Part shown: positions 7,788-30,352 of the stretch, one piece after another
Layout of the letters: every line of letters starts with the position of its first letter
How positions within the stretch are numbered: position 1 is the stretch's first letter
Program-made: the position numbers and the translations under genes
Assembly: GCA_021814085.1 (NCBI GenBank)
Contig: JAKAJA010000001.1
Coordinates: 1 to 34,944 of the forward strand
Direction of reading: 5' to 3'
Source of the DNA: Acidobacteriota bacterium
GTDB lineage: Bacteria; Acidobacteriota; UBA4820; DSQY01
DNA: 34,944 nucleotides
Notes under the pieces: generated by a model
The model's input: only the letters and a program-made list of their open reading frames with translations
What the model was told of the DNA's origin: nothing
The model's database searches: none

Positions 7788-8342
7788 TTAGGCCAGATAC
7801 TTGAACTCGATGAGCCCCAGCTTCCCGCTGGTGACGCCCACGGCGTCGTCCACCATGGCTTCGAGTTTGACGGGAACGCCCGTGGGATCGCCCGGCTTCC
7901 ACTCCAGCTTGGTGCCACCCGAGAAGCGCGCCTTGAACAGCGTGATCCGGGCCCACAGGCCGGGCAGATCGAACATGTGCTGGAACTGGGCCGAGAAGTA
8001 GTTCGCCACGGTGTTGCCGCCCACGTAGAACGACTTGATGTGGTTGATCGCATCGTCCGTGATGTCCGAGTCCGCCAGGCCGAGGGCGCGCGCCACGTTC
8101 TGCGCGATGAGATCCTCGATCTCGCCTTCCAGGGTCAGCTCCTCGCCCGTGATGAAGATCTTCACGAGGCCGAGCTGGTTGCCCACCTTGTGCTTCTTCT
8201 CGTCCTGCTTGTAGGTGGCGACGACGCCCTTCTCCGAATGGAACCCAGGGGAAGAGAATCCAGAGGCGTAGGAACCGGCGACATAGGTCTTCAGGTACAA
8301 GTCACCGATACCCAGTTGGAGATTCGCAGCAGATCCGCTCAT
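7788..8342 (-). CDS. Major tail (tube) protein, 184 aa
   Basis: Size, composition and position immediately upstream of the chaperone pair. GAGGAGG RBS. Confidence 0.8.
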   Translation of the reverse strand: MSGSAANLQLGIGDLYLKTYVAGSYASGFSSPGFHSEKGVVATYKQDEKKHKVGNQLGLVKIFITGEELTLEGEIEDLIAQNVARALGLADSDITDDAINHIKSFYVGGNTVANYFSAQFQHMFDLPGLWARITLFKARFSGGTKLEWKPGDPTGVPVKLEAMVDDAVGVTSGKLGLIEFKYLA

Positions 8343-8352: not shown

Positions 8353-8718
8353 TCAGACCGAATAGGCCTTGATGGTGCCGGTGCCGGTGCCGGTAACGTC
8401 CAGGTAGATGTCGGCCAGTTCAGCGCCCTGGCCGTACAGATTCCTGGCGAAGGGGCCCAGGAAGGCCGTCAGGCCAGCGGCGACGGTTACGGCGCCATTG
8501 CCGGCGGGCTCGACCACGGCTCCGCAGGTGGGGCAGGCGGCCCGCACGGCCGTCACGGTGACGGCGGCGGACACATGGGTGTTGATGATCTCGAAATAGT
8601 AGAGATCGACCCCGCCGGCCATGATGTGGCCGCTGCCCGCACTGAGCGCAACGGGGGCCACTTGGGCAACCCCGGCGCGGCCCGGCCTGGTTTGAATGGG
8701 AATGGCTACTCGCGGCAT
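8353..8718 (-). CDS. Hypothetical protein, 121 aa, Ala/Val/Gly/Thr-rich
   Basis: AGGAGG RBS and tight spacing in the operon, directly upstream of the tube gene. No motif recognised. Confidence 0.6.
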   Translation of the reverse strand: MPRVAIPIQTRPGRAGVAQVAPVALSAGSGHIMAGGVDLYYFEIINTHVSAAVTVTAVRAACPTCGAVVEPAGNGAVTVAAGLTAFLGPFARNLYGQGAELADIYLDVTGTGTGTIKAYSV

Positions 8719-8727
8719 GATGTCCTC

Positions 8728-9150
8728 CTATCGGATGGAAGAGCCGTCAGGAGGTAGTTCCCCTGGACGGGATGCACCGTTGAATATGTCCACGGCCGCC
8801 GTCAGCTGCTCGGCATAGAGACGAAGCGCCTTTATGCCGGCGGCCAGTTCGTTGACCTGCTGTTGTGTCAGGCAGTACCGCCCCTCCCCGTCCTGCGCTG
8901 GCAGGACCACATGAGGCGCCTGCGGCTTCGCGGGCACGGGGATGTGCGGGCAGACGGTGACGACGGCGGGCACCGGAGAATGCTGCACCGCACATCCGTT
9001 CATGGAGAGTGCAATGAGCGCTAGGCCTAGGCCAAATGCGCTCGCCGCGGCCACGCGGAGCATGAAGAGCAGCAACGCGCGCCCGTGCTGGCCAGGATGC
9101 AGGGGGCCGCGGGTGGCGGCCTTAGTCGTGAAAGAGGTCTGTGCCTTCAT
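8728..9150 (-). CDS. Lipoprotein-like envelope protein, o-spanin candidate (atypically long, with a C-terminal helical region)
   Basis: Hydrophobic leader ending LSMNG-C, then a proline-rich stretch (PVPAVVTVCPHIPVPAKPQAP). Overlaps the preceding TM/coiled-coil gene by 29 nt, as many spanin pairs do. Confidence 0.55.
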   Translation of the reverse strand: MKAQTSFTTKAATRGPLHPGQHGRALLLFMLRVAAASAFGLGLALIALSMNGCAVQHSPVPAVVTVCPHIPVPAKPQAPHVVLPAQDGEGRYCLTQQQVNELAAGIKALRLYAEQLTAAVDIFNGASRPGELPPDGSSIR

Positions 9151-9388
9151 GGGGTGTCTCCATCGGAGGTCGGTTGGCCTGAACCTCGGTCTGGGCCTCC
9201 TGCATCCTGGTTTCCAGGTCCATGGCCTGCTTCTGCGCCAGGACCGCCTTTTCCGCCGCTTCCGCCCGCACTTCCTGCCGGCCGAGATCCCGCGCCATCT
9301 GCTCAGCGCGCTCTTCTTTGCTCTTGCTCTTGCCGACGCCGAAGAGCCCGAGGAGCAGCTTGCCGATCACCGCCAGGAATTCAAACAT
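9122..9388 (-). CDS. N-terminal TM plus coiled-coil protein, i-spanin candidate, 88 aa
   Basis: MFEFLAVIGKLLLGLFGV membrane anchor followed by a charged heptad-like region. Sits in the lysis cluster. Confidence 0.6.
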   Translation of the reverse strand: MFEFLAVIGKLLLGLFGVGKSKSKEERAEQMARDLGRQEVRAEAAEKAVLAQKQAMDLETRMQEAQTEVQANRPPMETPHEGTDLFHD

Positions 9389-9389
9389 C

Positions 9390-10250
9390 TCAGAACCTCA
9401 GCCCGACCATGAGCTTGGTTTCGGGGAACGTCTTGTTCACGCCCTGGTACTGGGCATAGCGCACGTCCGCGATGACGGAGGCATACCAGTTGGACGCGAA
9501 CCAGTAGCGGGTTTCGATGCCGAGGAAGTAGGTCGCGGTCAGGGGCGCCCCGGCGATATTCGTGAGGCCGATGCCACCGATGGTGTTGACCGTGATGCTC
9601 TTGGCGTGTTCGTTCAGGTACGTGACCCAGCTTGAAGGAACTTCCGGCAGCGTGCCCGTGGCGAACGTCTTGAGCGTGTAGAGACAAGCAAAATCGAAGC
9701 CCCACAGACTGTGGCTGGACTTGGGGAGCTGGGGCACGAGGGGCTCCAGGAAGAGCGTGTCGTGGTAGGCGGAGACGCCCAGGGCCGCGTGGTCCGAGAT
9801 CCAGTAGTAGATATCGGCCTGGCCCATCACGTCGGAAGTGCTGAGGTTGAAGCCGTTGGTATCCGTGGCCGTCCAGAACATCTTGCCGCCGCCGATGCGG
9901 AACTCCCACTTGCCTTTCTCTCCGACCGTGGCGGGCGGGGCGGAAGACGGCGCCACCACGGGGGGCGCCGTAGGAGGCGCCTGGGCAAAGATGAACCCGG
10001 ACGCCAGCATGGCGATCACGAGGACCACCAGCACGTCCAGCCGCACGAAGCCCTTGTCATCGCCGGACTGGCCGGGCGCGGTGGTCGTGATGGTCCGCAG
10101 GAACGCGAACAGCCCGCCGATGAGGGCCACGATGATCCCCATGATGCGCGGGGGAATCGCGGCGATGACAGCCGGATCAGCGAAGGCCGCCGCCAGGGCG
10201 GGGATGATGACGAGTGTCGCTGCGATGAACGTCTTCCAACCTTTGAACAT
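9390..10250 (-). CDS. Holin-like N-terminus (2 TMs) fused in frame to a signal-peptide-like segment and an outer-membrane beta-barrel-like domain, 286 aa
   Basis: TM1 (TFIAATLVIIPALAAAF) and TM2 (IMGIIVALIGGLFAFL), then RLDVLVVLVIAMLASGFIFAQA-PP with an AxA-like cleavage site. About 200 further residues are aromatic/Gly-rich with alternating pattern, ending KLMVGLRF (C-terminal Phe beta-signal). AAGGAGG RBS. Confidence 0.7.
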   Translation of the reverse strand: MFKGWKTFIAATLVIIPALAAAFADPAVIAAIPPRIMGIIVALIGGLFAFLRTITTTAPGQSGDDKGFVRLDVLVVLVIAMLASGFIFAQAPPTAPPVVAPSSAPPATVGEKGKWEFRIGGGKMFWTATDTNGFNLSTSDVMGQADIYYWISDHAALGVSAYHDTLFLEPLVPQLPKSSHSLWGFDFACLYTLKTFATGTLPEVPSSWVTYLNEHAKSITVNTIGGIGLTNIAGAPLTATYFLGIETRYWFASNWYASVIADVRYAQYQGVNKTFPETKLMVGLRF

Positions 10251-10261
10251 GGCTCGCCTCC

Positions 10262-10855
10262 TTATGGGGCCTCACCGATGCACAGGAACCGGGCATAGGT
10301 CACAACCCGGTCCACGTAATTAACGGTTTCCTGGGTGTTTGAGGCGCCGGTGATCGGGCCGAGGTAGGGCGCCACGCCAGCCCACTCCGAACATTTGCCG
10401 CCCGCCTTGTTGCACGCCAACCGCGCCCTGTTGATGTTCCCCTGTCCGGCGTTGTAACTCGCAAGGGCGAACCTCCAGCGCTCGTCCCAGGGGATGTCCA
10501 TGAAGAGGCGGCAATGCCCGAGGGCCTTGACCCCGCCGGTTGCGCGGGGCACGTTCACGGCGATGCCCATGAGGTAGGCCATCAGGGCCGTGCCATCCAT
10601 GACGTTGCCTTCGGGCTCGTAGGCGTCCACATCGTCGTCAATCCACTTGTCCGTCTCGGGCATGAGCTGCATCAGGCCCTTGGCGCCGCAGCGGGACCTC
10701 GCGTCGGGGTCGAGCCCGGACTCCTGGACGGCCTGCGCCTTGAGCCGCCGCCAGTCGAAGGAGAGCGAGCCAAAGAAGTCCGCGCGGGCCTGGACGAAGA
10801 GCTTGTCGAAGCGGCTGAAGTTCGGAAGCTGCATGATCTGTTCACGTGTGAGCAC
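10262..10855 (-). CDS. Endolysin, SLT-family lytic transglycosylase, 197 aa
   Basis: AVQESGLDP...AKGLMQLMPET...ALASYNAGQGN: catalytic Glu-Ser, GLMQ and AYNAG-type motifs of the SLT domain. Confidence 0.85.
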   Translation of the reverse strand: MLTREQIMQLPNFSRFDKLFVQARADFFGSLSFDWRRLKAQAVQESGLDPDARSRCGAKGLMQLMPETDKWIDDDVDAYEPEGNVMDGTALMAYLMGIAVNVPRATGGVKALGHCRLFMDIPWDERWRFALASYNAGQGNINRARLACNKAGGKCSEWAGVAPYLGPITGASNTQETVNYVDRVVTYARFLCIGEAP

Positions 10856-11175
10856 TAGCGCCTCCCCTGTTGGATCGTGAGCAGGGTTCGGATGTCGGCG
10901 TGGATGCTCTCCAGCTGCACCTGGATGTTATCGATGCGCTTGTCCTGGGCGGCATCGGCGGCCATATGGTCATCGCGGTCCACCTTGCGCACGCGAAGGT
11001 CGAAAACCTCGGCCTTCACCTCCTGGATGGTTTTCCCTTGGGCCTCGATCATCCGCTGCAATTCAGCCTGGCTGATCTTCGACCCGCCCCAGCCGCCGCC
11101 GGCCCCGGAGATCCCGCACATCATGATGAGTAATGTCTTGTAGAAGCTGTCCCGGCGGCGCTCCGGTGCTGTCAT
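10855..11175 (-). CDS. Membrane-anchored coiled-coil protein, 106 aa (holin-associated or second spanin-like)
   Basis: FYKTLLIMMCGISGAGGGWGG hydrophobic segment followed by a charged helical region. AAGGGGGAG RBS. Sits immediately upstream of the endolysin. Confidence 0.6.
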   Translation of the reverse strand: MTAPERRRDSFYKTLLIMMCGISGAGGGWGGSKISQAELQRMIEAQGKTIQEVKAEVFDLRVRKVDRDDHMAADAAQDKRIDNIQVQLESIHADIRTLLTIQQGRR

Positions 11176-11185: not shown

Positions 11186-11869
11186 TTATTCCACGACCAC
11201 GCGCCAGGAGGCCCCGTGGGGGCTCACCTGCTTGTGGGTGGTATCGTTCAGATAAATGACCTGGATGGCGTAGTAATAGGTACCAGTTGTCTGCGTGTCC
11301 GTTGCGCTGCTAGCGCCGGATGCGTTGTCGCTGACAGTCGTCCAGGAGGCGAGCCCGTCGCTGGACCGCACCAGGCGATAACCCACGATTTCCGCTTGTG
11401 AGGGCAGCGGGGCCCACGAAACCTGGATGGCGCCAGCATTGTTGACGGCTACCGCGGGCGGCACCTCTCGCATGGTCGTCATGGAGATGGCCGGAGCCGG
11501 ATTGGTTGCGGCGAAGGACGCTGCGGCAACATAGGCCCGCTGGGTCACCAGGTTTGCTTCGGCGGTGTATTCCGCGACGACCACCAGCGTGGAACCATCT
11601 GGGGTAGAGAGGCCAAAGTCGCAAGGCGAATCAGCCACGCCGTATTGGGTGCCGTCCCAGTACAGCCGCCCGTGGTTAAACCCGCCGGTATAGGCAACCG
11701 TGCTGGCCGCCGCTTGCCACCCGCGCACCGAAGCAAACTGCCAGAGATTGCTGGGGAGTTCAGGCCCGCTTACGGTGAAGTGAAATCGGCCTGCCCCATT
11801 CTGGCAGTCTGCCCCCTTGAGAGGCAGGACGAGCGCCAACATGGCGAGCAGAAGTGCCGCGCGTCTCAC
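11186..11869 (-). CDS. Secreted protein with C-terminal FN3/Ig-like module, 227 aa
   Basis: Signal peptide MRRAALLLAMLALVLPLKGA. C-terminal IQVSWAPLP...VGYRLVRSSDG..W...GTYYYAIQVIY pattern. GTG start overlaps the upstream stop (GTGA). Confidence 0.7.
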   Translation of the reverse strand: MRRAALLLAMLALVLPLKGADCQNGAGRFHFTVSGPELPSNLWQFASVRGWQAAASTVAYTGGFNHGRLYWDGTQYGVADSPCDFGLSTPDGSTLVVVAEYTAEANLVTQRAYVAAASFAATNPAPAISMTTMREVPPAVAVNNAGAIQVSWAPLPSQAEIVGYRLVRSSDGLASWTTVSDNASGASSATDTQTTGTYYYAIQVIYLNDTTHKQVSPHGASWRVVVE

Positions 11870-12489
11870 GTCCTGTCTCCCAAATCGAAGGTAACTTCAG
11901 CGGCGTCGCTGAGAATGAAGTGATCCTTCGGGCCGCCCACCAACACCCCCCTCAGTAGGAACGTATGGGGCATCGCAGGCCCTGCCGTGGGGATAGACCC
12001 GGGCTGGCTCAGGATCACCTGCCCGTCACGGAGCATCTCGAACCGGACGATTGCGGATGGGTCCACGGCGGGGGCATCGATTGTAAGCGTGCTCAGCGTC
12101 TGGCCCTGGGCAAGGACGGGCTTGGGGAAGGGCACGGGCTGCAACTTCCCGATGGCACCGTCCGAAAGCTGAAACCTGAAGGCCACAACCTGGCCGGCGC
12201 CCTGGCCGTAGACGACCCAATCTCCAACCTGATACTGCGCGGGGATGGCCGCCTTGAACTGCCAGACATATACGTCTAGGTCTGCGAGATAGGAGACCTT
12301 CAGGGGCACCTCGAAATCGGAGGCGCCTACCGGGTAGGCCGTGAGTGCCGCCGAGCGGAATGCGAAGGAGGCGCTTGGCATCTGCCACGCCATCTTGACG
12401 ACCGGGGCCGCGGGCGCCTGGCCAAAGAGCGCGAGAACGGCCACCAGGCCGCAGGCCAGGCATAGAACGGGGATGAAGAGCTTGCGCAT
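11866..12489 (-). CDS. Secreted protein, 207 aa from MRKLFIPVLCLACGLVAVLALFGQA
   Basis: GGAGG RBS 5 nt before the ATG at 12489. Clear N-terminal signal peptide and a beta-rich mature part. The longer ORF-track start at 12579 overlaps the upstream gene and lacks an RBS. Confidence 0.7.
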   Translation of the reverse strand: MRKLFIPVLCLACGLVAVLALFGQAPAAPVVKMAWQMPSASFAFRSAALTAYPVGASDFEVPLKVSYLADLDVYVWQFKAAIPAQYQVGDWVVYGQGAGQVVAFRFQLSDGAIGKLQPVPFPKPVLAQGQTLSTLTIDAPAVDPSAIVRFEMLRDGQVILSQPGSIPTAGPAMPHTFLLRGVLVGGPKDHFILSDAAEVTFDLGDRT

Positions 12490-12491
12490 GA

Positions 12492-13472
12492 CTACCTCCG
12501 CAGGGGCGCCGATGAGGCGCTGAAATCGCTCGTGGTGCCGTCCGCGAACAAGAGGCGGATGGCATAGAAGCAATACCAATCGGGCGTGATGGCGGTGATG
12601 TTGTCGGTGCCCTGAAGCGCCGTCGCCGAATAGGTGCCCACCAGTGTGCCGAGGTCGCTGCCCACGCCCTGGTTGGAGCGGTACAGCTGGATGGCGGTCA
12701 CGTTTCCCGCCACATCCTCTGGGGGCGCCGTCCAGCCCACCGTCACCACCTGGTTGACTCTGCCAAGCACCGTTGGGGCGGGGATGGACCGGGCGGTTAA
12801 GGATGTGAGCGTTTGGTCCGCGCTCCCCACCGTGGCCACCAGCCCCGCATAGAAGCCCTCATGGTCCACCGTGGACGGGTAAAGCTCGCCAGGGTTGCCC
12901 TGGGTGACGAGAGACGTGCCGGCGGGGGGCCTATTGGTAGGGAAGTTATACAGGTCGAAGAGGAATTGGGTGGACGAGCTGCGCGCCGCAACCATGCGCC
13001 AGGTATCATCGCGGCCGAGGATCCTCGCCATCGGGGAGAGCGTGAACTGCTCGCCGTTATCGACCGTCATGAGGCAGATCTGCGATTGGTCTCTGGGGAC
13101 GGCGAGGTGCTCGTTTCGCCAGGCTCGCGGCTCGAGCGGATGGGGCGGCGTGCGCCATACGGCATAGACCCGATAGAACTCGTTCACGGGCACGCCGAGA
13201 ACGGTGCGCGTAATGGCGCCCACATCGGTCCATGTGAGGTTGTTGGTGATGGCCACGATCTTCTCCGCCCTGAATTCCGGCTGCAGCACGCCGCGCGTGA
13301 CGATGTAGCCATAGGTGGTGGACGGGGCGGTTGTCCAGTTGAGCACGACGTCGTTGGCCGCCCGGGTAAGCATGAGCGTGGTGACTGGACGCGCCGGGGC
13401 CGTCAGGGGCGGAAGCCCCGCCCACGTGGCGACGGCGCACAGCGCCAGAAGGAAAACCACGGCGCGGCGCAT
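12492..13472 (-). CDS. Secreted protein with two FN3/Ig-like modules, 326 aa
   Basis: Signal peptide MRRAVVFLLALCAVATWAG. VVLNWTTAP...YGYIVTRG...FYRVYAV near the N-terminus and VTVGWTAPP...IQLYRS...WYCFYAIRL near the C-terminus. Confidence 0.7.
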   Translation of the reverse strand: MRRAVVFLLALCAVATWAGLPPLTAPARPVTTLMLTRAANDVVLNWTTAPSTTYGYIVTRGVLQPEFRAEKIVAITNNLTWTDVGAITRTVLGVPVNEFYRVYAVWRTPPHPLEPRAWRNEHLAVPRDQSQICLMTVDNGEQFTLSPMARILGRDDTWRMVAARSSSTQFLFDLYNFPTNRPPAGTSLVTQGNPGELYPSTVDHEGFYAGLVATVGSADQTLTSLTARSIPAPTVLGRVNQVVTVGWTAPPEDVAGNVTAIQLYRSNQGVGSDLGTLVGTYSATALQGTDNITAITPDWYCFYAIRLLFADGTTSDFSASSAPLRR

Positions 13473-13473
13473 A

Positions 13474-13824
13474 TCAGTAGCTCGCCAGGATGCGAGGCGC
13501 GGAGCTGGACCCGGTAGCCTTCAGGTGCATCTTGCTCCACGGGATGTTGGTGGGTACTGACTCCGCCGGCTCCACAAAGAAGTCCGTGGCGGTGTCGATG
13601 GCAGTGTCCGTGAAATTCACGTAGAGCCTGCCCGTACCGTCGTTGACGATCATGGTCTGGCTGGCATGATAGCCCCCGGGGATGCTGAGCACCGTGTCCA
13701 CGGTCGTCAGCACCGTGGGGCGGAAGGCCACGCCCGTCAGCGGCGTGGTGCGGTAGGCGGCGGCCATCATGACCACCAGGAAAAGCACGAGGAGCGCGGC
13801 GAAGACCCAGGCACGGTTTCTCAT
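13474..13824 (-). CDS. Membrane-anchored or secreted small protein, 116 aa
   Basis: N-terminal hydrophobic segment WVFAALLVLFLVVMMAAA. AAGGAGG RBS embedded in the upstream gene's end. The ATG directly abuts the upstream stop. Confidence 0.7.
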   Translation of the reverse strand: MRNRAWVFAALLVLFLVVMMAAAYRTTPLTGVAFRPTVLTTVDTVLSIPGGYHASQTMIVNDGTGRLYVNFTDTAIDTATDFFVEPAESVPTNIPWSKMHLKATGSSSAPRILASY

Positions 13825-14214
13825 TCAAGCCTCCTTGACGACGCAGTGAAAGATCTGAACCAGGTGGAAATAATCCCCCTGGGGCATTTGCTGAGGAGGG
13901 TTACAGGTGATTCGGCGCAGGGGCTCGGGAAGGCCGTCCCGAATATCCTTCAGCCGCAGGCAATCCGTCACCTGGCCCTGGACGGAGAACGCCTCCTGCC
14001 AGCTCGTTGCGGAGTAGATGTCCACGGCCACGTCCGGTGTCGTAAAGGCCGGGTGGTTGGCATCCGATCCGCCGTTGAGCCGCAGGACGACGGCGGGCAC
14101 AAGGCCCGCCACATCGGCCCGGCTCACATAAATGCGCTCCCCCACTATCGCCGTCAGGCCCTCACTGGAGAGCAGCCGGGTACGTAGGGCGGCCAGGACG
14201 CGCCCGCTATCCAC
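13825..14214 (-). CDS. Tail completion/terminator-like protein (DUF3168-like), about 129 aa from a GTG
   Basis: VLAALRTRLLSSEGLTAIVGERIYVSRA...VPAVVLRL resembles the DUF3168 N-terminal signature. The Arg/Pro-rich N-terminal extension in the ORF track overlaps the upstream gene and looks non-coding. Confidence 0.6.
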   Translation of the reverse strand: MDSGRVLAALRTRLLSSEGLTAIVGERIYVSRADVAGLVPAVVLRLNGGSDANHPAFTTPDVAVDIYSATSWQEAFSVQGQVTDCLRLKDIRDGLPEPLRRITCNPPQQMPQGDYFHLVQIFHCVVKEA

Positions 14215-14680
14215 GGATCGCCTCCTTGATGGCGGCGCGGGCCGCGGCCTTGAGCGTATCGCGCCATTTCGGCGCGATGAGGTCATAGGCGGGCTTCATG
14301 AAAGGCTGGGGCCTGGTGCCCTTCATGTAGATCTTCCAGCGCACGGCCGCCTCGGCCTTGTCCAGCGCTTCCCCACTAAGGCCGAGCTTGCGCTGGAGAT
14401 ACTGGCGCAGCGCCCCGGGGGGCGGCATGTACTGCGCATGGCCAACCTCCGGGCCGGTGCCGTTCTCGATGTAGGGGCCATGCGGGGAGGTGCAGGTAAG
14501 GCGGGCGTGAAAGACCATGCCCTCCTGGATGCCCTGTCCATGGATCTGCGATTTGAGGCCGGGCGACGAGGCACCGTCAGGCGCCAGTTTCACGGCCTCC
14601 ACCTCCATGGCGAGGGCCGTCTTGTCGGCGGCGGCAAGAAAATGTGCTTCCATGGAGGCCTGAAGATTCGCCAGGCTCAT
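14207..14680 (-). CDS. HK97 gp10-family tail/neck component, 157 aa
   Basis: Central IENGTG... and ...GTRPQPFMKPA motif typical of the HK97 gp10 family. ATGA overlap with the upstream gene. Confidence 0.65.
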   Translation of the reverse strand: MSLANLQASMEAHFLAAADKTALAMEVEAVKLAPDGASSPGLKSQIHGQGIQEGMVFHARLTCTSPHGPYIENGTGPEVGHAQYMPPPGALRQYLQRKLGLSGEALDKAEAAVRWKIYMKGTRPQPFMKPAYDLIAPKWRDTLKAAARAAIKEAIRG

Positions 14681-15011: not shown

Positions 15012-15575
15012 TCACCTGGCGCCCCGCCTGTACCGGAGGGTATCCAGCATGAGGGCCACGTCGCGGTCCATCTCGATCGGATCCAGGCTGATCGCATAGC
15101 CTTCGATGCTCTCGGACCGCACGCCCTCGGCGATACGCTCCCGCACTTTGTTGTGCCGAACTTTCCGGGAAGCCAGGCGGAGACAGGCCTCTTTCGCTTT
15201 CGAGGGCGGATCGGCATAGCCCCAGTCCACGGTGAGAGTGAAGATTTTCCCGAACCCCCACGCCACGGGCCTGACGACCACGCCATGTGAACGGACGCAG
15301 AGGGCGGCCACCTGGTCCGTGGTCCAGGCAACGCCGTCCTCAATCACCGCCGTGACGGCCCGGAGCGGATACGAGGGCAGCAGCAGGTCAACCCTGCCGC
15401 TGCCCAGCACCGTGACCGCCTCTTGGGGGTGATCGGAAAAGTCGCGCCTGCAGAAGGTGTTGATGTCCTCAGTGGCCTCATCGAGCTTGATCTGAGCCAC
15501 TTCCGAGGCAGGCAGGGTGGTGGCCCCGTCCGCTGCGAGTCTGGCAAGAAGATGTTCGACCGTCTCATATGACAT
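15012..15575 (-). CDS. gp6-like head-tail connector protein, 187 aa
   Basis: N-terminal MSYETVEHLLARL... pattern, and position as the first gene of the head-completion block downstream of the capsid gene and the 66-aa ORF. Confidence 0.6.
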   Translation of the reverse strand: MSYETVEHLLARLAADGATTLPASEVAQIKLDEATEDINTFCRRDFSDHPQEAVTVLGSGRVDLLLPSYPLRAVTAVIEDGVAWTTDQVAALCVRSHGVVVRPVAWGFGKIFTLTVDWGYADPPSKAKEACLRLASRKVRHNKVRERIAEGVRSESIEGYAISLDPIEMDRDVALMLDTLRYRRGAR

Positions 15576-15969: not shown

Positions 15970-16932
15970 TTACGCGACGGTGCGCTCGCCGTATACGAGG
16001 TAGTTGAGCACCTCGGTATGGCCGACCCGCGCCGTGAGGGTGTACTCGATCATGCGTGCGCGGGGGTTCCGCAGCCGCTCAACCGAGATCACCCGCTTGA
16101 ATCCGGCGTACCAAGCCTTCTGGCGGCCGAAGAACCCGACGTGGGCGGGCATGGAAATCAGCTCCTTGACCGGCACGCCCCGATAGCGCAGGCTGCCCTG
16201 CTGGTCCTGCGTGATGGCCGCGTCGCCCAGGCCCGTGTTGCGGCTCTGGTAGGCGTCCCACAGGTCCGAGAAGTCCGTTGTGGAAACCCAGAAGGCGGTC
16301 TGCCCGCCCTTGCGCACCTGCGCGGGGGCGGCGTTGAACATCCCGGCCAGCCACTCCATGACCGTCTCCACGGCGCCGGGGGTGTACTTTGTCCCCGAGG
16401 CCTTGACGAGCTTGATGGCCCCGTTGAAGGTCTGGAGGAACGGGGTGCCAGACGCGGTGTCCCCGTTGATGACGAGATCCTCGAGGTCGTTGGCGACGGC
16501 TGCCATCGACAGGTCGCCGATGATCTGGTCCACCGCGGCGTTCGCCGCGATCTGCCCCGTCTCCTGGGCGGTCTTCCCGATGGCGTCTTCCAGCGCGTCG
16601 TAGGGGATGTTGATGGGGAGGATCACCTCGGTGGGCTCGATTTCGTTCTTCCCCGTGGAGAAGGTGGGGATGGTCGTAGGAGCGGCCCCCGCCACGGCCT
16701 TCTGGAGCTGCCTGGAGGCCATCCCGATGAGCGGGATCGTGCTCTTGTCGCCGCCGAAAATCACGAGGTTGCCGTTGCGCTCGATGTCCTTGAGCAGGAC
16801 GGAAACGTCCTCGGTGGTTTTGATGAACTCCCGGAACGCCTCGGCGGGCATGGTGGACCCAGAGGCCCAGCTAAGTGACGGATCGCCGGCGGCGCGGGCG
16901 AAGATGCGATTGAGGATCTGTTCGATGTCCAT
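15970..16932 (-). CDS. Major capsid protein, HK97-fold type, 320 aa
   Basis: Size, position after the protease/scaffold gene, AGGAGG RBS, and typical composition. Confidence 0.85.
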   Translation of the reverse strand: MDIEQILNRIFARAAGDPSLSWASGSTMPAEAFREFIKTTEDVSVLLKDIERNGNLVIFGGDKSTIPLIGMASRQLQKAVAGAAPTTIPTFSTGKNEIEPTEVILPINIPYDALEDAIGKTAQETGQIAANAAVDQIIGDLSMAAVANDLEDLVINGDTASGTPFLQTFNGAIKLVKASGTKYTPGAVETVMEWLAGMFNAAPAQVRKGGQTAFWVSTTDFSDLWDAYQSRNTGLGDAAITQDQQGSLRYRGVPVKELISMPAHVGFFGRQKAWYAGFKRVISVERLRNPRARMIEYTLTARVGHTEVLNYLVYGERTVA

Positions 16933-16948: not shown

Positions 16949-18286
16949 TCAGTGGCCGACGAACGCGCCGGCGTAGCGGCTCTTGTTGGGGGTCGGGCCG
17001 TCCACGTGATCCTTGGACTGGCGCTCGGTGGCCATCTCTTCCAGCTTGTCGGTCAAGGCCTTGATGGTGCGGCCCTGCTCGGCGATCTGGGCCTGGAGGG
17101 CCTCGTTGCCCGCGGAGGGAGGCGTGCCCTCGGCGGGTGCCTCGATGGCATCCATCAGGCCCTGGAGGGCGCGGACGGCGGGCTCCGCGACAGCCTTGAG
17201 CGCCTCGTTCCCCGCCACGGCCAAAACGGCCTTCTGCGCGGTTTCGAGCGCCAGGCGCGCCTCGGGGGCGACCGCGACGCGGGCGGGCGGAGGCTCGGGG
17301 ATGACGGGCGCCGGGGTCGGCGTCTCGGGCTTCTGGGGAGCGGTAGAGAGCCCCAGAACCCGCGCGAAGAGAGCCTTCAGGCCCTTTTCCACGCTCTGCT
17401 CAAGCTGTTTCTCGTCCATGGTGGTGTCCTCCTGTGCCCTGCGGCCAAGCGCGGGCGGGGTCTCGTTGAACTGCGCGTAGAGCGCCGCCAGCCGGTCATA
17501 GACTGCCTGGCGCTGGTCGTCTGGCACGGCCACGCCCTTGCGGCCGCCGTTCAGCGCGGCCATGGCCGCAACGAGGCCGTAGAAGTAGAGCGTCAGCTGC
17601 GCGTCTCCGGCGGCGGCCAGCTTGGCCACGGGGAGCGCATAGGCTGCCTTATCGTCGGGGTAGCCGTCCCCGTCCGGGTCTGGAGCGCTGGCGTCGAAAT
17701 AGGCGCAGGCATCAGAGAGCATCGCGCAACCGCCGGCCGCGATAATCCCGTCCGCGTCGGCCTGCCAGTCGAAAGTCCAGGGCGCTGCCTTATCCGCCAT
17801 CAGGTAGTCGCACATGGCGGACCGATAGAGCGTGAACGTACAGTCGGGGTTGCTGGGCCGGTCCACCAGGGAGATCTCAAGGAGGCGATACTTGGTGAAA
17901 ACGAAGACCTCGTGACCGCCGCGCACCTCAAAATGTCCGTCCAGCGGATCGAACCCAATGGAAAAGCCGCGATAGACGTTCTCGTCAACCTTCTTCCACT
18001 CCGCGTCGTCCACCACTCGTGCGCCGATATGCAGCGCCTGGTCATCCAGCTCGAGGATTGGCACCGTGCCGGCGGCCAGGTTGGCGTGCATGGCGCGGAG
18101 CGTGCGCCACTGCTCGTATTCGGCGAGGGCTTCGCGGGTTGCCGCTAGTGCAAAGATGGTGCCATACGAATCTTCGGCCTCGCTTGTGGCGGGGCCGAAT
18201 ACCATTCGCTGCGAGTCGTCTCGGGTGAAGGGGTAGAAGCGCTTGCCGGGTTGCAAAAGGGCCTTCGCGCGCGCGTCTGTTGCCAT
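16949..18286 (-). CDS. Prohead protease fused to a scaffold-like C-terminal coiled coil (Mu gpI/Z-like arrangement), 445 aa from MATDARAK
   Basis: The N-terminal half carries HK97-type protease-like motifs (GFSIGF..., EISLVDRPSNP). The C-terminal third is Ala/Glu/Lys/Gln-rich coiled coil. AGGAGG RBS before the ATG at 18286. Confidence 0.75.
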   Translation of the reverse strand: MATDARAKALLQPGKRFYPFTRDDSQRMVFGPATSEAEDSYGTIFALAATREALAEYEQWRTLRAMHANLAAGTVPILELDDQALHIGARVVDDAEWKKVDENVYRGFSIGFDPLDGHFEVRGGHEVFVFTKYRLLEISLVDRPSNPDCTFTLYRSAMCDYLMADKAAPWTFDWQADADGIIAAGGCAMLSDACAYFDASAPDPDGDGYPDDKAAYALPVAKLAAAGDAQLTLYFYGLVAAMAALNGGRKGVAVPDDQRQAVYDRLAALYAQFNETPPALGRRAQEDTTMDEKQLEQSVEKGLKALFARVLGLSTAPQKPETPTPAPVIPEPPPARVAVAPEARLALETAQKAVLAVAGNEALKAVAEPAVRALQGLMDAIEAPAEGTPPSAGNEALQAQIAEQGRTIKALTDKLEEMATERQSKDHVDGPTPNKSRYAGAFVGH

Positions 18287-18332
18287 GGATAGGCCCCTCC
18301 TATTCTGAGGGTTGCCTATCGGTCGTGCCCAT

Positions 18333-18351
18333 GCCAGCAAGAACGCGAGGA
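18333..18351. repeat. 19-mer GCCAGCAAGAACGCGAGGA, copy 1 (candidate late-promoter box upstream of the protease/scaffold gene)
   Basis: Identical to 22579-22597. Both copies lie in minus-strand intergenic regions, 44-46 nt upstream of a start codon. Confidence 0.8.
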
Positions 18352-18363
18352 ACAAGAAGAAAT

Positions 18364-19137
18364 CTACAGGTTGACCACGGCCACCCAGTAGCAATCGCAG
18401 TTGGGGTGCAGGGGCATCTGCAGCCGCTGGGCGTCCTCAACCGAATACTCCCCGGCGAGATCTCCGCAGGCGCAATTGCCGTTATAGGCCGGGCCCAGTA
18501 CCCACTCCACCTGGTCCACCCGCCCCTTGTAGCCGTCCAGGCGGGCGGCGTTCGCGGCCTTGGCCAACTCGGTGCGGCAGATGCGCTCTATCTCATAGTC
18601 GCTCAGGCTCGATATGCTTTTGATGCGCTCCATCGCCTGGTGCATGTTCTCACCGAGGCGCTGGGCCTCCAAAAGCTGGGCCTGGATGTCCCCGTGCACG
18701 CGGGCGGCCGTTTTGGCGCACAGCGAGACGGACTGCGCCTCGAGGTTCCCGACGATGGCCGGGTCCATCTTGGTGAACACGATATCTGGCTGGTGTAGGT
18801 CCTGGGCCACATCCGCCAGGCCGGCGTCGATCGCCTCCTCCATGGCCCTGATTAACTCGGCTTCAAGAGAGCGTTCAAACTCAGCGGCGGCGGCCTTTAG
18901 CCCGTAATCATCCCAGGCCACCACCCCGCCCTCCTCATGCAGGTCACTGGCGAGCGCCTCCTCGAGCGCGGCATAGATGGATTGGAAATTAACCACCGCC
19001 GCCTTCGTGGCGGCTTTCGGCGCGCCCCCCTTAGCGCGGCAGTGTTCGGGCCGCAACACCCCGAGCCCGGAGAGGCATTGCTCGACCAGACGAAGGACCG
19101 CCCCGCGGTCACTTCTTTGGCGGCAGCTCTCGCACAT
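18364..19137 (-). CDS. Mu F-like (SPP1 gp7 family) head morphogenesis protein
   Basis: C-terminal ...CACGDLAG...MPLHPNCDCYWV motif (HPNC-x-C) typical of the Phage_Mu_F family. Follows the portal gene. Confidence 0.8.
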   Translation of the reverse strand: MCESCRQRSDRGAVLRLVEQCLSGLGVLRPEHCRAKGGAPKAATKAAVVNFQSIYAALEEALASDLHEEGGVVAWDDYGLKAAAAEFERSLEAELIRAMEEAIDAGLADVAQDLHQPDIVFTKMDPAIVGNLEAQSVSLCAKTAARVHGDIQAQLLEAQRLGENMHQAMERIKSISSLSDYEIERICRTELAKAANAARLDGYKGRVDQVEWVLGPAYNGNCACGDLAGEYSVEDAQRLQMPLHPNCDCYWVAVVNL

Positions 19138-20473
19138 CCTGTACCTCAGAGATCATCCTGCGCAGTTGGAGCAGGGCGTCCATCATGCGGCCCGGCGTCG
19201 GCGGGAGGTTCCCCGCCACGAGGTCCTCCACGCGCACGGGGCCCTGGTTCGTGTAGGCGATGTGCGCGTCCCCGATGGGCCCCATGCCCTGGAACCCTAG
19301 GCGCGCCAGCACCTGGTTAGACGTGAGGTCCCCTTTCTCTTGGAGGGCGCAGAGGGCCATGACCAGCTGGTAGAAATCCTCCAGTGAAGACTGTTTGAAG
19401 GCATAGAAGTAGCCCGGGGGCGCGAACTCCCGGGCCACGGCGGTGAGCCTCCGCAGGAAGATGCGTAAGATAGGCTGCGTGACCTCGTTCTTGAAGGTCT
19501 GGTCCTCCTGGTAGGCCGTCGCGTAATTGCTCGCCCCGAGGCTCACCTTGGTGGGCGGCACGTGGGCCTTCGCCAAGATCCGCTGGCGCAAGACCTCCTC
19601 GGCCTTGACGAACGAGCTGTCCTCCTGGTCCTGGAGGAGCTTCTCCACCTTGCCTTCGCCCACCCCGTCTAACAGGCCGATGGCCGCATCCGGCCCCTGC
19701 TGGGCCAGCCCTTTTAGAAATGCCTCAAACCGCTTGGCGCTATCGTCGTCAAGGGCCTCCTTGAGGATCAGCAGGAAGGGCGGAATACCGCCCTTGTTGA
19801 GCAGGGTCCTGTTGTACGAATCCTGCGCGCTCAGACGGTCCGCCGTGCTGGCGAGGGTCTTGACCATGGAACTGCCCAAGCTGAGCGCCGAGGGGTCATA
19901 CTTTCGGATGAGCACCAACTCTGGCGACTTCGCCTTGTTCCCACCGGATGAATAGGGCACGAACTCGGAGACGGTCTGGCCCAGGTAGTTCACCTGAAGG
20001 AACGATTTCAGGTCCCGGCGGGCCCGGATGGTGGCCGCTGGCACATGGTACCAGGCCGCTGGGAGTCCATCCGTCCCACGAACGATCTCAAATCCGCAAT
20101 AGCCTTGAATCCTGTAGTCTGTCGTGAGCGCCTCTAGGCGCTCGCCAACCGTCTCCATGGTCCGCTGGGTATTGTCCAGAAAATCGGCCATCTTCCCGAG
20201 GATCTTTGGCTCCGCCTTCTGCTCCGGATCTGGGCCGATGAATGCCGGCGAGACCTCCGCGGTGCCTACGCCAGTAGCCACCGCGTCAACGGCCGCCGAA
20301 AACCACGGATCAAGATCATAGAGTTGGGCGGCGGAGAGCGGGTCAACCTGCGGCGGGAGATAGCTGGGCAGCGCCTCCTGCGCCACGGACCCATTCTCTT
20401 GGCCCGTGCGCGGATCGAGCACGCGCAGCCCATGCGCCCTGAATCGCCCTGCGGCCTTTTTCCTCTCACTCAT
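19109..20473 (-). CDS. Portal protein, 454 aa
   Basis: Size and position between the large terminase and the MuF-like gene. TAGGAG RBS. Confidence 0.8.
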   Translation of the reverse strand: MSERKKAAGRFRAHGLRVLDPRTGQENGSVAQEALPSYLPPQVDPLSAAQLYDLDPWFSAAVDAVATGVGTAEVSPAFIGPDPEQKAEPKILGKMADFLDNTQRTMETVGERLEALTTDYRIQGYCGFEIVRGTDGLPAAWYHVPAATIRARRDLKSFLQVNYLGQTVSEFVPYSSGGNKAKSPELVLIRKYDPSALSLGSSMVKTLASTADRLSAQDSYNRTLLNKGGIPPFLLILKEALDDDSAKRFEAFLKGLAQQGPDAAIGLLDGVGEGKVEKLLQDQEDSSFVKAEEVLRQRILAKAHVPPTKVSLGASNYATAYQEDQTFKNEVTQPILRIFLRRLTAVAREFAPPGYFYAFKQSSLEDFYQLVMALCALQEKGDLTSNQVLARLGFQGMGPIGDAHIAYTNQGPVRVEDLVAGNLPPTPGRMMDALLQLRRMISEVQDVRELPPKK

Positions 20474-21988: not shown

Positions 21989-22534
21989 TCAGCCTCCGGC
22001 CAGGGCGATCTTCCGCCGCGATTCCAGGAACGACTCCACGTGGGCCTCAAGCCTGGGGAGCAGGCTCGGCTCCCCGGCCTTCACATGCGCCACGAAGAGA
22101 TTGAGGATGGCGAAGATGGTGGTCACGGTGAGCTTCTCGCCCCGGAGCCTGTCCACCGCCGTGGTGATTTTCAGGATGGAATCGGCCAGGGGGGCGCTTA
22201 GCTCGCGCTTGCCCTCCTCGACCTCCATGAGCATCTGGAGGAGCTTGCGCTCCAGGATATCCGCCGCGCCGTCCTTGCTCGCAAGCATGGCCCGGCGTTT
22301 CGACTCCCAGCCGCCCTCTTGGGCCCACCGGCCCACCGTGGCGGCGGACCGGTCGAGCACCTTGGCGATGTCCATGATCTTCGCGCCCTCGCGGATGAAG
22401 GCGTGCTCGGCCTGCAACCTCTCTTGAAATTCTGAGTTGCCCTTGGAGACGGAGATAGGGATGGGCGGCGGCTTCTTGTCGTCGGCCTTGTGGTGCTTCC
22501 ACTTGCGTCCTACTATCCCGCCCTTGCGCGGCAT
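21989..22534 (-). CDS. Terminase small subunit, 181 aa from MPRKGG
   Basis: Basic N-terminus, HTH-like IMDIAKVLDRSAATVGRWAQEGGW. First gene after the terminator and immediately upstream of TerL. Confidence 0.7.
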   Translation of the reverse strand: MPRKGGIVGRKWKHHKADDKKPPPIPISVSKGNSEFQERLQAEHAFIREGAKIMDIAKVLDRSAATVGRWAQEGGWESKRRAMLASKDGAADILERKLLQMLMEVEEGKRELSAPLADSILKITTAVDRLRGEKLTVTTIFAILNLFVAHVKAGEPSLLPRLEAHVESFLESRRKIALAGG

Positions 22535-22578
22535 CTGCACCTCGCCGTAGACAGCATGGGAGGGCTGGAGAGCAAGAG

Positions 22579-22597
22579 GCCAGCAAGAACGCGAGGA
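22579..22597. repeat. 19-mer GCCAGCAAGAACGCGAGGA, copy 2 (candidate late-promoter box upstream of TerS)
   Basis: Identical to 18333-18351. The flanking A/G-rich sequence is also similar (AGAA-AAA-C). Confidence 0.8.
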
Positions 22598-22602
22598 GTG
22601 AG

Positions 22603-22631
22603 AAAAAAGCGGGCCCCACAAAGGGGCCCGC
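22603..22631 (-). terminator. Rho-independent terminator ending the middle transcription unit
   Basis: Minus strand reads GCGGGCCCC-tttgt-GGGGCCCGC followed by TTTTTT. Lies 31 nt downstream of the lipoprotein stop. Confidence 0.9.
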
Positions 22632-24516: not shown

Positions 24517-24738
24517 TTACACCGCCTCTTGGAGCCGTTCGAGGTGGTCTCGCACTTCACTGCTGGGCACGAGCGTTTTATGGGGCCCCCGACGATCGCA
24601 CTTGATATGGCCTTCCGCGATCCACCGGTAGATGGTGGAGATGTGCACGTCGAGGAGCGCGGCCAGCTGGGACACGCACCAGGTTTGGCGCATGGCTAGG
24701 CGGCTCATGATCTCGTCTCGGCTCTTGGGGTCACCCAT
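24517..24738 (-). CDS. Small HTH DNA-binding protein (excisionase/MerR-like HTH), last gene of the early operon, 73 aa from MGDPKS
   Basis: CVSQLAALLDVHISTIYRWIAEGHI helix-turn-helix. Occupies the position of Mu mor, after the gemA-like gene. Confidence 0.65.
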   Translation of the reverse strand: MGDPKSRDEIMSRLAMRQTWCVSQLAALLDVHISTIYRWIAEGHIKCDRRGPHKTLVPSSEVRDHLERLQEAV

Positions 24739-25156
24739 GGGCAGTCTCCTTCCCGCCCGCCGGCGGGCCGGGGGCTCCATAGTTCCAGCGCCGCAGCGCC
24801 TGGATTAACTTTGATAGGTCGCGCCGGTCGCACCACTTGAGGGCGTCGCGCCCGGTGACGTGCCTGAGGATCCCATTGAACCGATGGTCGTCCACCTTGT
24901 GCTCACGGCAGAGCCGCTCAATCTCGCGCATCTGGCCGCGCGTTCCGCCCGCTGGTGTTGCGGGCTTGGCGGTTGGGATGAAGCCCAGCTGCGCGAAGAC
25001 CTTCATCATCTCGAAGTAGTGTACGGGCTGGAGGCACCTGTCCGTGCTCTTCTTCGCCCCGAACCTCGACAAGAGCGCCCGGTACGTATCCTCGTCCATG
25101 CTGACCTTGGACTTGGCCACATGGATGAGCTTGATCATGCGCGGAGAAAGGCTCAT
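24731..25156 (-). CDS. gemA: Mu gp16/GemA-like protein, 141 aa
   Basis: MIKLIHVAKSKVSMDEDTYRALLSRFGAKKSTDRC...MMKVFAQLGF resembles the DUF1018/GemA signature. ATGA coupling. Confidence 0.65.
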   Translation of the reverse strand: MSLSPRMIKLIHVAKSKVSMDEDTYRALLSRFGAKKSTDRCLQPVHYFEMMKVFAQLGFIPTAKPATPAGGTRGQMREIERLCREHKVDDHRFNGILRHVTGRDALKWCDRRDLSKLIQALRRWNYGAPGPPAGGKETAHG

Positions 25157-28462: not shown

Positions 28463-28488
28463 CCTTTCGGCCTCGTCAGCGCGGGCCT

Positions 28489-29066: not shown

Positions 29067-29078
29067 CGTGTACCTCCT

Positions 29079-30268: not shown

Positions 30269-30352
30269 CGTCACCTCCTCTATCTCGCCCTCTCGATCAG
30301 CACTCAGCTCACATACCCGCCCGTGCGGGCTGTTCGCATGTCACAACAAGGT

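Follow-up and report, generated by a model that had tools for sequence, protein, structure and literature searches.

Superinfection exclusion, receptor masking and lysogenic conversion have one of their main sources in phage accessory genes that are aimed at the cell envelope. To our knowledge, the described examples are nearly all single small proteins and come from phages of model hosts. The locus considered here raises the question of what a block of four consecutive genes (A-D), each encoding a protein with a hydrophobic leader, contributes to a phage in which it stands between tail and lysis genes. The window, i.e., the whole stretch of 34,944 nucleotides that has been analysed (contig JAKAJA010000001.1, Acidobacteriota bacterium), carries these genes at positions 11186-13824. 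A sequence-only reading had regarded Sec-exported proteins as unexpected at such a position, which has turned out to be too strong, as HK97 gp15 and the lambda genes lom and bor are envelope-targeted genes inside tail or late operons (PMC3594210). Our analysis indicates that A-B-C-D is very probably an exported, non-virion and non-enzymatic accessory cassette, and it tentatively favours the fuller reading of a mobile accessory cassette of exported binders that might act in receptor or entry masking during lytic growth.

Gene order, junctions and predicted leaders

All four genes lie on the minus strand. Gene A (13474-13824) encodes 116 aa, in which an N-terminal hydrophobic stretch at residues 1-23 (nt 13756-13824), either a leader or an anchor, is followed by a beta-rich domain of ~90 aa, and the C-terminal residue of its product is aromatic. 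It is followed by gene B (12492-13472; 326 aa), in which a leader (residues 1-19) precedes three tandem FN3-like beta-sandwich domains, by gene C (11866-12489; 207 aa) with a leader (residues 1-25) and two tandem Ig/FN3-like domains, and by gene D (11186-11869; 227 aa), which starts with GTG and has its leader at residues 1-20. The ATG of gene A directly abuts the TGA of the upstream tail-completion gene (13825-14286, minus strand; Pfam Tail_completion_gp17, E 1.1e-5, above the curated cut-off), and an SD sequence (AAGGAGG) is located just 5' of it. Genes A and B are joined by TGA-t-ATG, gene B ends with CGGAGGTAG, to which tc and the ATG of gene C are attached, and the GTG of gene D, preceded by GGGAGA, overlaps the TGA of gene C. 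A promoter scan of the coding strand of the cassette has found no sigma-70-like promoter, terminator-like sites are fewer than the shuffle expectation, and the GC content of 0.63-0.65 is like that of the rest of the window. Judged from these junctions, the four genes appear to be tightly and translationally coupled to each other and to their neighbours.

Downstream of the cassette, a lysis-type block starts with a 106-aa protein containing a TM segment and a coiled coil (10855-11175, minus strand) and continues with an SLT-domain muramidase (10262-10855, minus strand; Pfam SLT E 1.6e-17, PHROG endolysin), while an Rz-like gene is found at 8728-9150; the earlier placement of the block directly upstream of lysis genes is thus correct for the window. 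The TM/coiled-coil and SLT genes (10262-11175) are outside the cassette and are not beside it in the MuB-linked loci described below. The major tail protein, chaperones and tape measure are likewise encoded downstream of the cassette in the window. Other envelope-type genes of this phage are DPBB_1, a gene for a CarboxypepD_reg protein and one for a 3-TM protein.

Each of the four window products shows basic residues near the N-terminus, followed by a hydrophobic stretch and small residues. We have scored leaders by a strict tripartite heuristic (basic n-region, h-region of 10-20 hydrophobic residues, small residues at -3/-1), which has been positive for five of the 35 window products, namely A-D and the 3-TM protein, so that the four consecutive leader-bearing proteins of the first reading have been recovered both as ORFs and by this measure. 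Among the cassette orthologues 32 of 40 have been positive, as compared with two of 410 in a control set of crude ORFs, taken from 78 other Mu-like contigs where they lie downstream of MuB, and the frequency of leaders in the cassette is far above chance. The misses comprise the A protein of locus L007, which has no leader, and several orthologues just under the thresholds. In window A the h-region extends over 19 residues and could consequently represent an uncleaved anchor. In the alignment of D orthologues, C22 and C83 are invariant; such a pair fits an oxidising compartment and provides indirect support for an extracytoplasmic location. All four cassette families carry predicted Sec-type leaders, and we infer that, during lytic growth, A-D reach the periplasm or cell envelope by export. 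Lipoproteins and type IV pilin-like leaders have been considered as well and rejected, as the canonical lipobox and the G/F-E motif, respectively, are absent from the sequences.

Folds and paralogy of the encoded proteins

A direct Pfam match to FN3 or Ig domains has been obtained for none of the four proteins at E <= 0.1, and PDB sequence profiles have returned FN3 for A-D at sub-threshold level only (E 0.66-1). The best PDB profiles for C (ebulin, E 0.044) and for A (a cNMP-binding beta-roll, E 1.3) have been sub-threshold, too, and are not relied on here. AlphaFold2 models have been made of B and C, with moderate confidence and from alignments of 6-9 sequences, and both are all-beta after the leader. 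For the B model (pLDDT 68.5), the best Foldseek matches in the PDB are triple-FN3 tandems of contactin, titin and fibronectin (E ~3e-7, probability 1.0), although domain 2 has a low pLDDT. The C model (pLDDT 72.8, pTM 0.65) matches the EPO receptor and RPTP Ig1-2 tandems in the PDB (E 4e-4 to 1e-2) and has yielded only generic FN3/Ig matches in BFVD. The TM-scores are low (0.2-0.3), as the domain orientations differ. As far as these predictions go, both proteins match the seven-stranded beta-sandwich FN3/Ig fold of solved structures.

Within B, domain 1 (residues 27-108, 13149-13394, minus strand) is FN3-like, with modelled strands at residues 30-106, and contains the motif VLNWTTAP...FYRVYAV. 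Domain 2 (residues 125-228, 12789-13100, minus strand) is a beta-sandwich predicted with low confidence (pLDDT 45-72), and the FN3-like domain 3 (residues 229-326, 12495-12788, minus strand) is the best-predicted part of the protein (pLDDT 73-92). Protein C consists of a conserved N-domain (residues 28-112, nt 12154-12408, minus strand) and a variable C-domain (residues 113-207, nt 11869-12153, minus strand). In D, an N-domain with the conserved Cys22/Cys83 (residues 20-126, nt 11492-11812, minus strand) is followed by a C-terminal fn3 domain (residues 127-227, nt 11189-11491, minus strand).

The suspicion that at least two of the proteins are paralogues has been confirmed for B and D, as residues 183-318 of B are paralogous to residues 90-211 of D (hhalign probability 95%, E 2.4e-8). 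Domain 3 of B is thereby homologous to the C-terminal fn3 domain of D, and the C-terminal half of B domain 2 aligns with D residues 90-126. A paralogy of protein C with B or D has been rejected in view of the low hhalign probabilities (6% and 0.5%). In a search with the D profile, positions ~115-210 have matched 868 proteins when E <= 1e-3 was required, and 126 with E <= 1e-10; Pfam fn3 (PF00041) is present in seven of ten sampled matches (E 1e-14 to 1e-75) and absent in the other three. Only ~7 full-length clusters are included, the remaining matches being fn3 repeats. By transitive homology, the C-terminal domain of D can be regarded as a true fn3 relative, and its nearest relatives in sequence are giant multi-FN3 surface proteins, some of them with T9SS sorting signals or dockerin. 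The three FN3-like motifs noted at the outset stand up to the triple-FN3 matches of B, the fn3 relationship of the D profile and the B/D homology; the original description has to be corrected insofar as C also is an Ig/FN3-type tandem, and the whole set is built of beta-sandwiches. B, C and D consist of beta-sandwich (FN3/Ig-like) domains and A of a small beta-rich domain. For A, no family or PDB match has been found (Pfam, PHROGs, PDB profiles), and homologues of B form only 9 clusters among 5.8 billion proteins.

No family match for A-D has been found in Pfam, PHROGs, NCBIfam or PADLOC, and these databases together with PDB sequences have revealed no enzyme domain, in agreement with the first impression that a catalytic motif is missing. 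Domain 2 of B has nonetheless been considered as an enzyme, as D173, E196 and H204 belong to its invariant residues (N139, D173, N176, E196, P199, H204), yet catalysis finds no support in any fold or family match, and the model is of low confidence here. The lack of an enzyme domain makes a role of A-D as modifying enzymes unlikely. The profile and Foldseek searches that had been proposed as a check have likewise led to no assignment to tail, decoration, lysis or defence families.

A conserved unit in different operons

The second proposed check, co-occurrence, has shown that A-B-C-D is conserved as one unit in about a dozen loci of phages or prophages, including two prophages in Acidobacteriota MAGs. 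The cassette belongs to transposable (Mu-like) and related phages, the window phage being Mu-like, and their hosts are probably Acidobacteriota; the hosts are uncultured. In eight loci (L001/L010, L002, L004/5, L006, L008/9, L015, L016, L018/19), the cassette is inserted in the early operon directly after MuA/MuB and before Gam/GemA/Mor, and in four of these eight the start of A overlaps the stop of MuB. A second arrangement, between a tail-completion gene and lysis genes, is found in the window, L003, L012+L017 and L020; the tail-completion gene also borders the cassette in L003, L012 and L020 and marks the insertion point of this late type, and the endolysin nearby is an SLT protein in the window and L003 and a glucosaminidase in L017. 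In the integrase phage L007, the cassette is flanked by the gene of an Rz-like spanin on one side and that of a small membrane protein on the other, and in contig L011 it lies upstream of MuA. Embedding in a late operon, as first described, accordingly applies to the window lineage, whereas the usual home of the cassette is the early operon after MuB.

The cassette has been found with two head modules (Phage_portal vs Portal_Mu/Mu_F) and in an integrase phage, and on the basis of this gene content it is not tied to the virion module. Since it stays intact and translationally coupled while occupying different operons, we regard it as horizontally mobile, as far as can be judged from the sequences. 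In keeping with an accessory nature, it is absent from 78 other MuB-bearing IMG/VR viral contigs. A megablast search with 11.5 kb and a tblastn search with B against 50,697 GenBank phages have given no match, and scans of IMG/VR with C and D profiles have given none either. A widened B profile has returned L011 again from IMG/VR and nothing further, and a search for phages of the window lineage without the cassette, by means of the capsid protein alone and then of a 3-sequence profile, has returned L012 only.

The dN/dS values of the cassette (0.13-0.23) are in the same range as those of MuA, MuB and Gam and show purifying selection. Domain 1 of B is the most conserved domain, with 42-76% identity across loci. 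Orthologues of A have been found in 10 loci and fall into two sequence types, the C-domain of C is mosaic between loci, and the domain types recombine independently of genomic position. Position-independent recombination of domains is typical of specificity determinants.

Possible function and relation to known systems

Among the superinfection-exclusion or receptor-masking proteins of the lytic cycle are T4 Imm and Spackle, P1 Sim, T5 Llp and Cor of phi80, N15 and T1. Such proteins work through envelope binding, their synthesis often falls in the early part of the lytic programme, and virions assemble without them. Like A-D, they are phage-encoded, leader-bearing or targeted to membrane or periplasm, and non-enzymatic. 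With its early-operon position in the majority of loci, the cassette is in line with exclusion proteins of the lytic cycle (e.g., T4 Imm/Sp, T5 Llp), and we tentatively propose that it may mask a phage receptor or entry route at the envelope. A-D would function together, through binding rather than catalysis. Of the domains, those that are conserved (B domain 1, C N-domain) would hold the set together or dock it to a conserved partner, and the target specificity would be set by the variable ones (A, B domain 2, C C-domain, D N-domain). The assembled set could cover or block an envelope structure that is used as phage receptor or entry route, by which the infected cell would be protected from superinfection and fewer progeny would be lost on cell debris.

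Several points count against masking. A-D have shown no sequence or profile similarity to known exclusion proteins (PADLOC at E <= 0.1; PHROGs). The latter are single small proteins or lipoproteins without FN3/Ig domains, whereas the cassette comprises four genes and eight domains and has no lipobox; we know of no four-protein exclusion system. The A protein of L007 without a leader speaks against export and masking alike. In the window lineage, with the cassette in the late operon only, expression would come late for protection of the infected cell but is still compatible with protection of the progeny. As the cassette has no promoter of its own, lysogens are probably not protected.

The main rival to masking is an accessory role in release, in which the exported set, at the end of the cycle and together with holin, endolysin and spanin, would help progeny to escape by loosening or bridging an additional envelope or surface layer of the host. 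The cassette is located directly 5' of lysis-type genes in the window lineage, it adjoins the Rz-like spanin and small membrane protein genes in the unrelated integrase phage L007, and late-only expression, as in the window, would suffice. The region beside lysis genes is, however, a common cargo site of phages, which makes adjacency weak evidence for release, and eight loci couple the cassette to MuB, far from lysis genes. Spanins (Rz/Rz1) are periplasmic and encoded beside endolysin genes, and the cassette adjoins such genes in three contexts; unlike spanins, A-D have neither a periplasmic coiled coil nor a lipobox-bearing outer-membrane lipoprotein partner. A-D have also been rejected as i- or o-spanin on the grounds of the all-beta models of B and C, the missing lipobox and the lack of an Rz-like PHROG match, and the Rz-like gene that the window already has is separate from them. 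With no enzyme domain in A-D, and no lytic activity known to us for FN3/Ig arrays, we regard a role in release as unlikely.

A similarly low likelihood is assigned to remodelling of the host surface for another purpose, be it adhesion, aggregation, binding of biofilm or matrix, or interference with a machine of the host envelope (pili, secretion systems, envelope-located defence). Exported arrays of FN3/Ig domains are modules of a generic kind, for binding or as spacers, the fn3 relatives of D are giant multi-FN3 surface proteins, and the window phage has the further envelope-type genes DPBB_1, CarboxypepD_reg and 3-TM. Against this reading, the location in lytic operons and the missing promoter make a long-term benefit for lysogens unlikely, and no specific target can be named. 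A separate and bolder reading, which we consider rather improbable, is that A-D form one ordered, Ig/FN3-only structure (a rod, a coat or a periplasm-spanning stack) with A as the membrane anchor, built by the phage in the envelope during lytic growth. Swappable domains (A, C C-domain, D N-domain) would then retarget the apparatus to other host structures, with the purpose of sealing the cell against competing phages or readying the envelope for release; if true, phages would thereby make a non-catalytic envelope apparatus of a new class.

That A-D are tail or head accessory or decoration proteins, with hydrophobic N-termini that are not export signals, is very unlikely: phage Ig/FN3 domains are usually borne on virion proteins, the window cassette lies between tail-completion and major-tail genes, and the fn3 domain of D has a weak PHROG match to an Ig-domain major tail protein (E 0.077), but in eight loci the cassette is coupled to MuB, within the early transposition operon, a major tail protein, chaperones and a tape measure are already encoded downstream by the window phage, the leaders of all four families and the Cys pair of D are conserved, the cassette accompanies head modules of two different kinds and is also found in an integrase phage, and no tail or decoration family has been matched (PHROG and Pfam at E <= 0.01; the BFVD hits are generic FN3). 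T4 Hoc, the C-terminus of lambda gpV and gpJ (Pfam fn3, Big_2, Ig_J_second) have the fold class in common with the cassette; in virions, however, such domains are appended to leaderless structural proteins, whereas A-D are free-standing, leader-bearing and mostly encoded in early operons.

With masking as the preferred reading, two further systems are to be compared. Morons resemble the cassette as non-structural, envelope-targeted genes among tail and late genes that move horizontally between phages. Their definition, in a source that also mentions Cor and SieA (PMC3594210), requires a promoter and a terminator of their own and a deviant GC content. Morons are expressed from the prophage, while the four genes of the cassette are translationally coupled to their neighbours, and a classical moron has been rejected, as the cassette lacks its own promoter and terminator, stops and starts abut or overlap on both sides, and the GC content is like that of the window. 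PapD-like and other periplasmic tandem-Ig proteins combine, as C does, a signal peptide with two Ig-like domains in ~200 aa, and pilin-type small beta-rich subunits with an aromatic end resemble A. C as a PapD-like chaperone has been rejected, however, as the 50 best Foldseek matches in the PDB include no chaperone-usher structure; Pfam has given no PapD or fimbrial match, and no usher-sized gene has been found in or beside the cassette in any context examined.

A described equivalent of the four-gene unit has not been found in the literature. The cassette can be regarded as an undescribed four-gene accessory module of exported binding domains that is pluggable into an early or a late operon, in phages that probably infect the poorly studied Acidobacteriota. 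If A-D indeed form an envelope-binding complex, phages would control the cell surface by an architecture that is new, and the cassette would be a naturally occurring collection of modular FN3 binders whose specificity domains can be swapped. For annotation, a position immediately behind head-tail joining genes does not suffice to make an FN3/Ig-like protein a tail or decoration protein.

The cassette and its phage

The window represents a transposable phage of the Mu-like kind, and the minus strand has been found to be the coding strand for every gene of its 34,944 bases. Genes A (13474-13824, 116 aa), B (12492-13472, 326 aa), C (11866-12489, 207 aa) and D (11186-11869, 227 aa, GTG start) follow one another on this strand with spacer-free packing and are referred to here as the cassette. 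The ATG of A comes immediately after the stop codon of the upstream tail-completion gene, with AAGGAGG shortly 5', a single base separates A from B, the pair of Arg codons that closes B makes the GGAGG site for C, D begins with a GTG overlapping the C stop (TGA), and the gene 3' of D carries a GGGGGAG site ahead of its start. Promoter-like sites have been looked for on the coding strand at the cassette and none has been found, terminator-like sites stay below the number given by shuffling, and the GC content is that of the remaining window. All four N-termini show one or two basic residues, then a hydrophobic run and a short small-residue stretch, and a strict leader heuristic has scored five of the 35 window products as positive, namely A-D and one three-TM protein. 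The four tightly packed, leader-bearing ORFs described in the sequence-only reading are indeed present.

Upstream of the cassette, all on the minus strand, lie a MuA-type transposase (30353-32335), a MuB-like AAA protein (29354-30274), GemA (24731-25258), portal (19109-20473), prohead protease fusion (16949-18394), capsid (15970-16932), head-tail adaptor (15012-15575), a Neck1-type protein (14207-14680) and, directly before A, a Tail_completion_gp17 protein (13825-14286). The gap between the tail-completion and tail tube genes holds A-D and a lysis-type block (8353-11175, minus strand), in which D is followed by a 106-aa TM plus coiled-coil protein, an SLT muramidase (10262-10855), a 286-aa 3-TM protein (9390-10250), an Rz-like protein (8728-9150) and a 121-aa protein. 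As this block sits between the tail-completion and major tail genes, the structural operon is split, a layout common to the window and the related loci L003 and L017. On the same strand, the major tail protein (7788-8342) is followed by two chaperone-sized genes, an 818-aa tape-measure-sized and a 1331-aa fibre-sized protein; the tail module is thus complete without A-D. A megablast of 11.5 kb has yielded no match, the best identity of the capsid to any GenBank phage is ∼30% at most, and the phage is distant from anything cultured.

Genomic contexts and mosaicism

Among 5.8 billion proteins, nine homologue clusters have been found for B, eight for D and six for C. Treating the four genes as one block has proved justified, as A-D always co-occur across the homologue contigs, in constant order and tight packing, with varying flanks. 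Four contexts have been distinguished. (i) In eight loci (L001/L010, L002, L004/5, L006, L008/9, L015, L016, L018/19) the cassette occupies the early operon, in the order MuA, MuB, cassette, Gam, GemA, Mor, and the MuB stop is overlapped by the A start in L001, L004, L008 and L015; the heads of these phages are of the Portal_Mu plus Mu_F kind, and L001/L010 and L015 are prophages of a Thermoanaerobaculia and an Acidobacteriota MAG, respectively. (ii) In the window, L003, L012+L017 and L020 it follows the tail-completion gene in the late operon, with a 105-107-aa protein and then an endolysin 3' of it, the latter being SLT in the window and L003 and glucosaminidase in L017. The swap has occurred at the same position (L017 1135-1611, PF01832, vs. 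window 10262-10855), and the window and L017 copies of the small protein just 5' of the endolysin have 82% identity, above any other shared protein. (iii) L007 is an integrase phage (tyrosine integrase and YqaJ) in which the cassette is flanked on one side by a 100-aa membrane protein and on the other by an Rz-like gene. This membrane protein has two or three TM segments and is encoded 10 nt upstream of A. In this stretch of L007 (639-1251) A is without leader, its first residue corresponding roughly to the mature N-termini of the orthologues. (iv) In L011/L013 the cassette has terminase, Mu portal and MuF on its upstream side and MuA-MuB on its downstream side. This stretch (L011, 2567-15851) runs on one strand through terminase, Mu-type portal, MuF, several small genes, the cassette and the gene of a 112-aa protein to MuA (843 aa) and MuB (299 aa), and its unusual order could reflect rearrangement of the element or a join made in assembly.

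The cassette is a mobile unit, independent of the virion module, with the early operon as its commonest home. The late-operon placement in the sequence-only reading is true of the window, but the site after MuB is the commoner one. HMMs of all four proteins have found no cassette in 78 other MuB-bearing IMG/VR contigs, and it is therefore sporadic cargo. Of the crude ORFs found up to 3 kb 3' of MuB in those contigs, only 2/410 are leader-positive, as opposed to 32/40 cassette proteins under the same strict heuristic, so the insertion slot does not account for the run of leaders.

A-D are real genes under purifying selection: comparison of the closely related L001 and L015 gives dN/dS values of 0.13 (A), 0.17 (B), 0.16 (C) and 0.23 (D), in the same range as MuA (0.19), MuB (0.07) and Gam (0.17). 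Per-domain identity matrices across loci have revealed a mosaic. Conservation is highest in B domain 1 and the C N-domain (∼45-78% identity among most loci). A falls into two types with 20-28% identity between them, type I in late and other contexts and type II after MuB. The D N-domain has two main types, and L008 and L018 pair a type II A with a window-type D N-domain; the C C-domain sorts into at least four groups, and these track neither A type nor genome position (window/L008 72% vs. window/L003 35%). A conserved core with exchangeable domains is the pattern expected of a binding apparatus with a variable target.

Protein architecture and candidate function

A-D have no match in Pfam, PHROGs, NCBIfam or PADLOC, and their profiles have given nothing above threshold against PDB sequences, with sub-threshold FN3/Ig hints only. 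The AlphaFold2 model of B (nine homologues, mean pLDDT 68.5, highest at residues 229-326 and lowest at 109-129 and 194-203) is all-beta beyond the leader, and its top PDB matches are triple tandem FN3 fragments of contactins, titin, fibronectin and neogenin (E ∼3e-7, probability 1.0). The C model (six homologues, pLDDT 72.8, pTM 0.65) matches two-domain FN3/Ig tandems, e.g., erythropoietin receptor and RPTP Ig1-2 (E 4e-4 and weaker), and among viral models generic FN3 proteins only. A HMMER search of 1.84 billion representative proteins with the D profile has retrieved ∼7 full-length relatives and further hundreds of giant repeat proteins matching positions ∼115-210 only; as these repeats carry Pfam fn3 in seven of ten sampled, the C-terminal domain of D is, on profile evidence, assigned as a true fn3. 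The paralogy suspected earlier has been confirmed for B 183-318 and D 90-211 (hhalign 95%, E 2.4e-8), and C has shown no detectable relationship to either. A is a beta-rich domain of ∼90 residues whose C-terminal residue is always Tyr or Phe. B, C and D together comprise seven beta-sandwich domains, A adds a small beta-rich one, and no enzyme has been found. The Cys22/Cys83 pair of the D N-domain is invariant. Most B homologues have a domain-1 pair (LRC...VCRG, positions 35 and 59), replaced by Met and Thr in window B and reduced to one Cys in two other homologues, so that this disulfide, if formed, is dispensable.

We infer that A-D would be exported and act jointly by binding. Tentatively ranked first is a candidate role in masking or blocking an envelope receptor or entry route, by which the infected cell and/or the progeny would be protected. 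Operon position, and hence expected timing, is not conserved, being early with transposition genes in most loci and late in the window lineage. In Mu, early-type transcripts last through the cycle, and a late or post-lysis function therefore fits both arrangements; an early-needed function is compatible only with the majority one. A non-enzymatic aid to release, ranked second, is suggested by the lysis genes adjoining the cassette in two independent backbones and is considered unlikely overall, as is other surface remodelling, placed third. Virion Ig-like domains have the fold in common with the cassette and differ in genomic context, and a virion component is ranked last as very improbable. 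Part of the probability is assigned to none of these four readings.

In proposed mode of action, T4 Imm/Sp, P1 Sim, T5 Llp and Cor, which act in lytic-cycle exclusion or receptor masking, come closest to this candidate masking role; the cassette falls outside these families because no homology has been found and the architecture differs. It resembles morons as envelope cargo within a structural operon, but morons are defined by their own promoter and terminator and a deviant GC content (PMC3594210), none of which the cassette has. Nor is it a spanin, a set of lipoproteins or a system of the chaperone-usher kind. Exported proteins had been regarded as not expected in late operons, yet precedent exists in HK97 gp15, envelope cargo inside a structural operon (PMC3594210). 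The earlier interpretation is partly supported: its description as an undescribed envelope-directed module stands, but the late operon is not the commonest home of this mobile cassette, and the lack of precedent does not hold. Phage envelope-targeted accessory genes are a known class, within which the multi-protein, all-FN3/Ig architecture of A-D is unusual; the cassette is striking for its clean anatomy and flexible position, in a rare family with uncultured hosts and inferred function.

Further window genes

The 286-aa protein (9390-10250), read earlier as an OMP-like domain, combines three TM segments at its N-terminus with a beta-rich C-terminal half ending ...MVGLRF, and it has no match in Pfam, PHROG, NCBIfam, PADLOC or PDB sequences. 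The ORF at 22047-22619, which sits where a small terminase would be expected, may be the reported BamE-like lipoprotein; in its provisionally called frame and start it begins MGPAFFSLLAFLLASC, with a lipobox-like LLASC, and has no match among PDB sequences. The post-MuB slot (25622-29253), the cassette site in other phages, is filled in the window by other genes, encoding a 267-aa protein, the RlpA-like DPBB_1 protein (27998-28462), a 164-aa protein and a 508-aa protein with CarboxypepD_reg. The DPBB_1 protein has an internal hydrophobic segment, and a DPBB_1 gene has also been observed in L018, after Mor.
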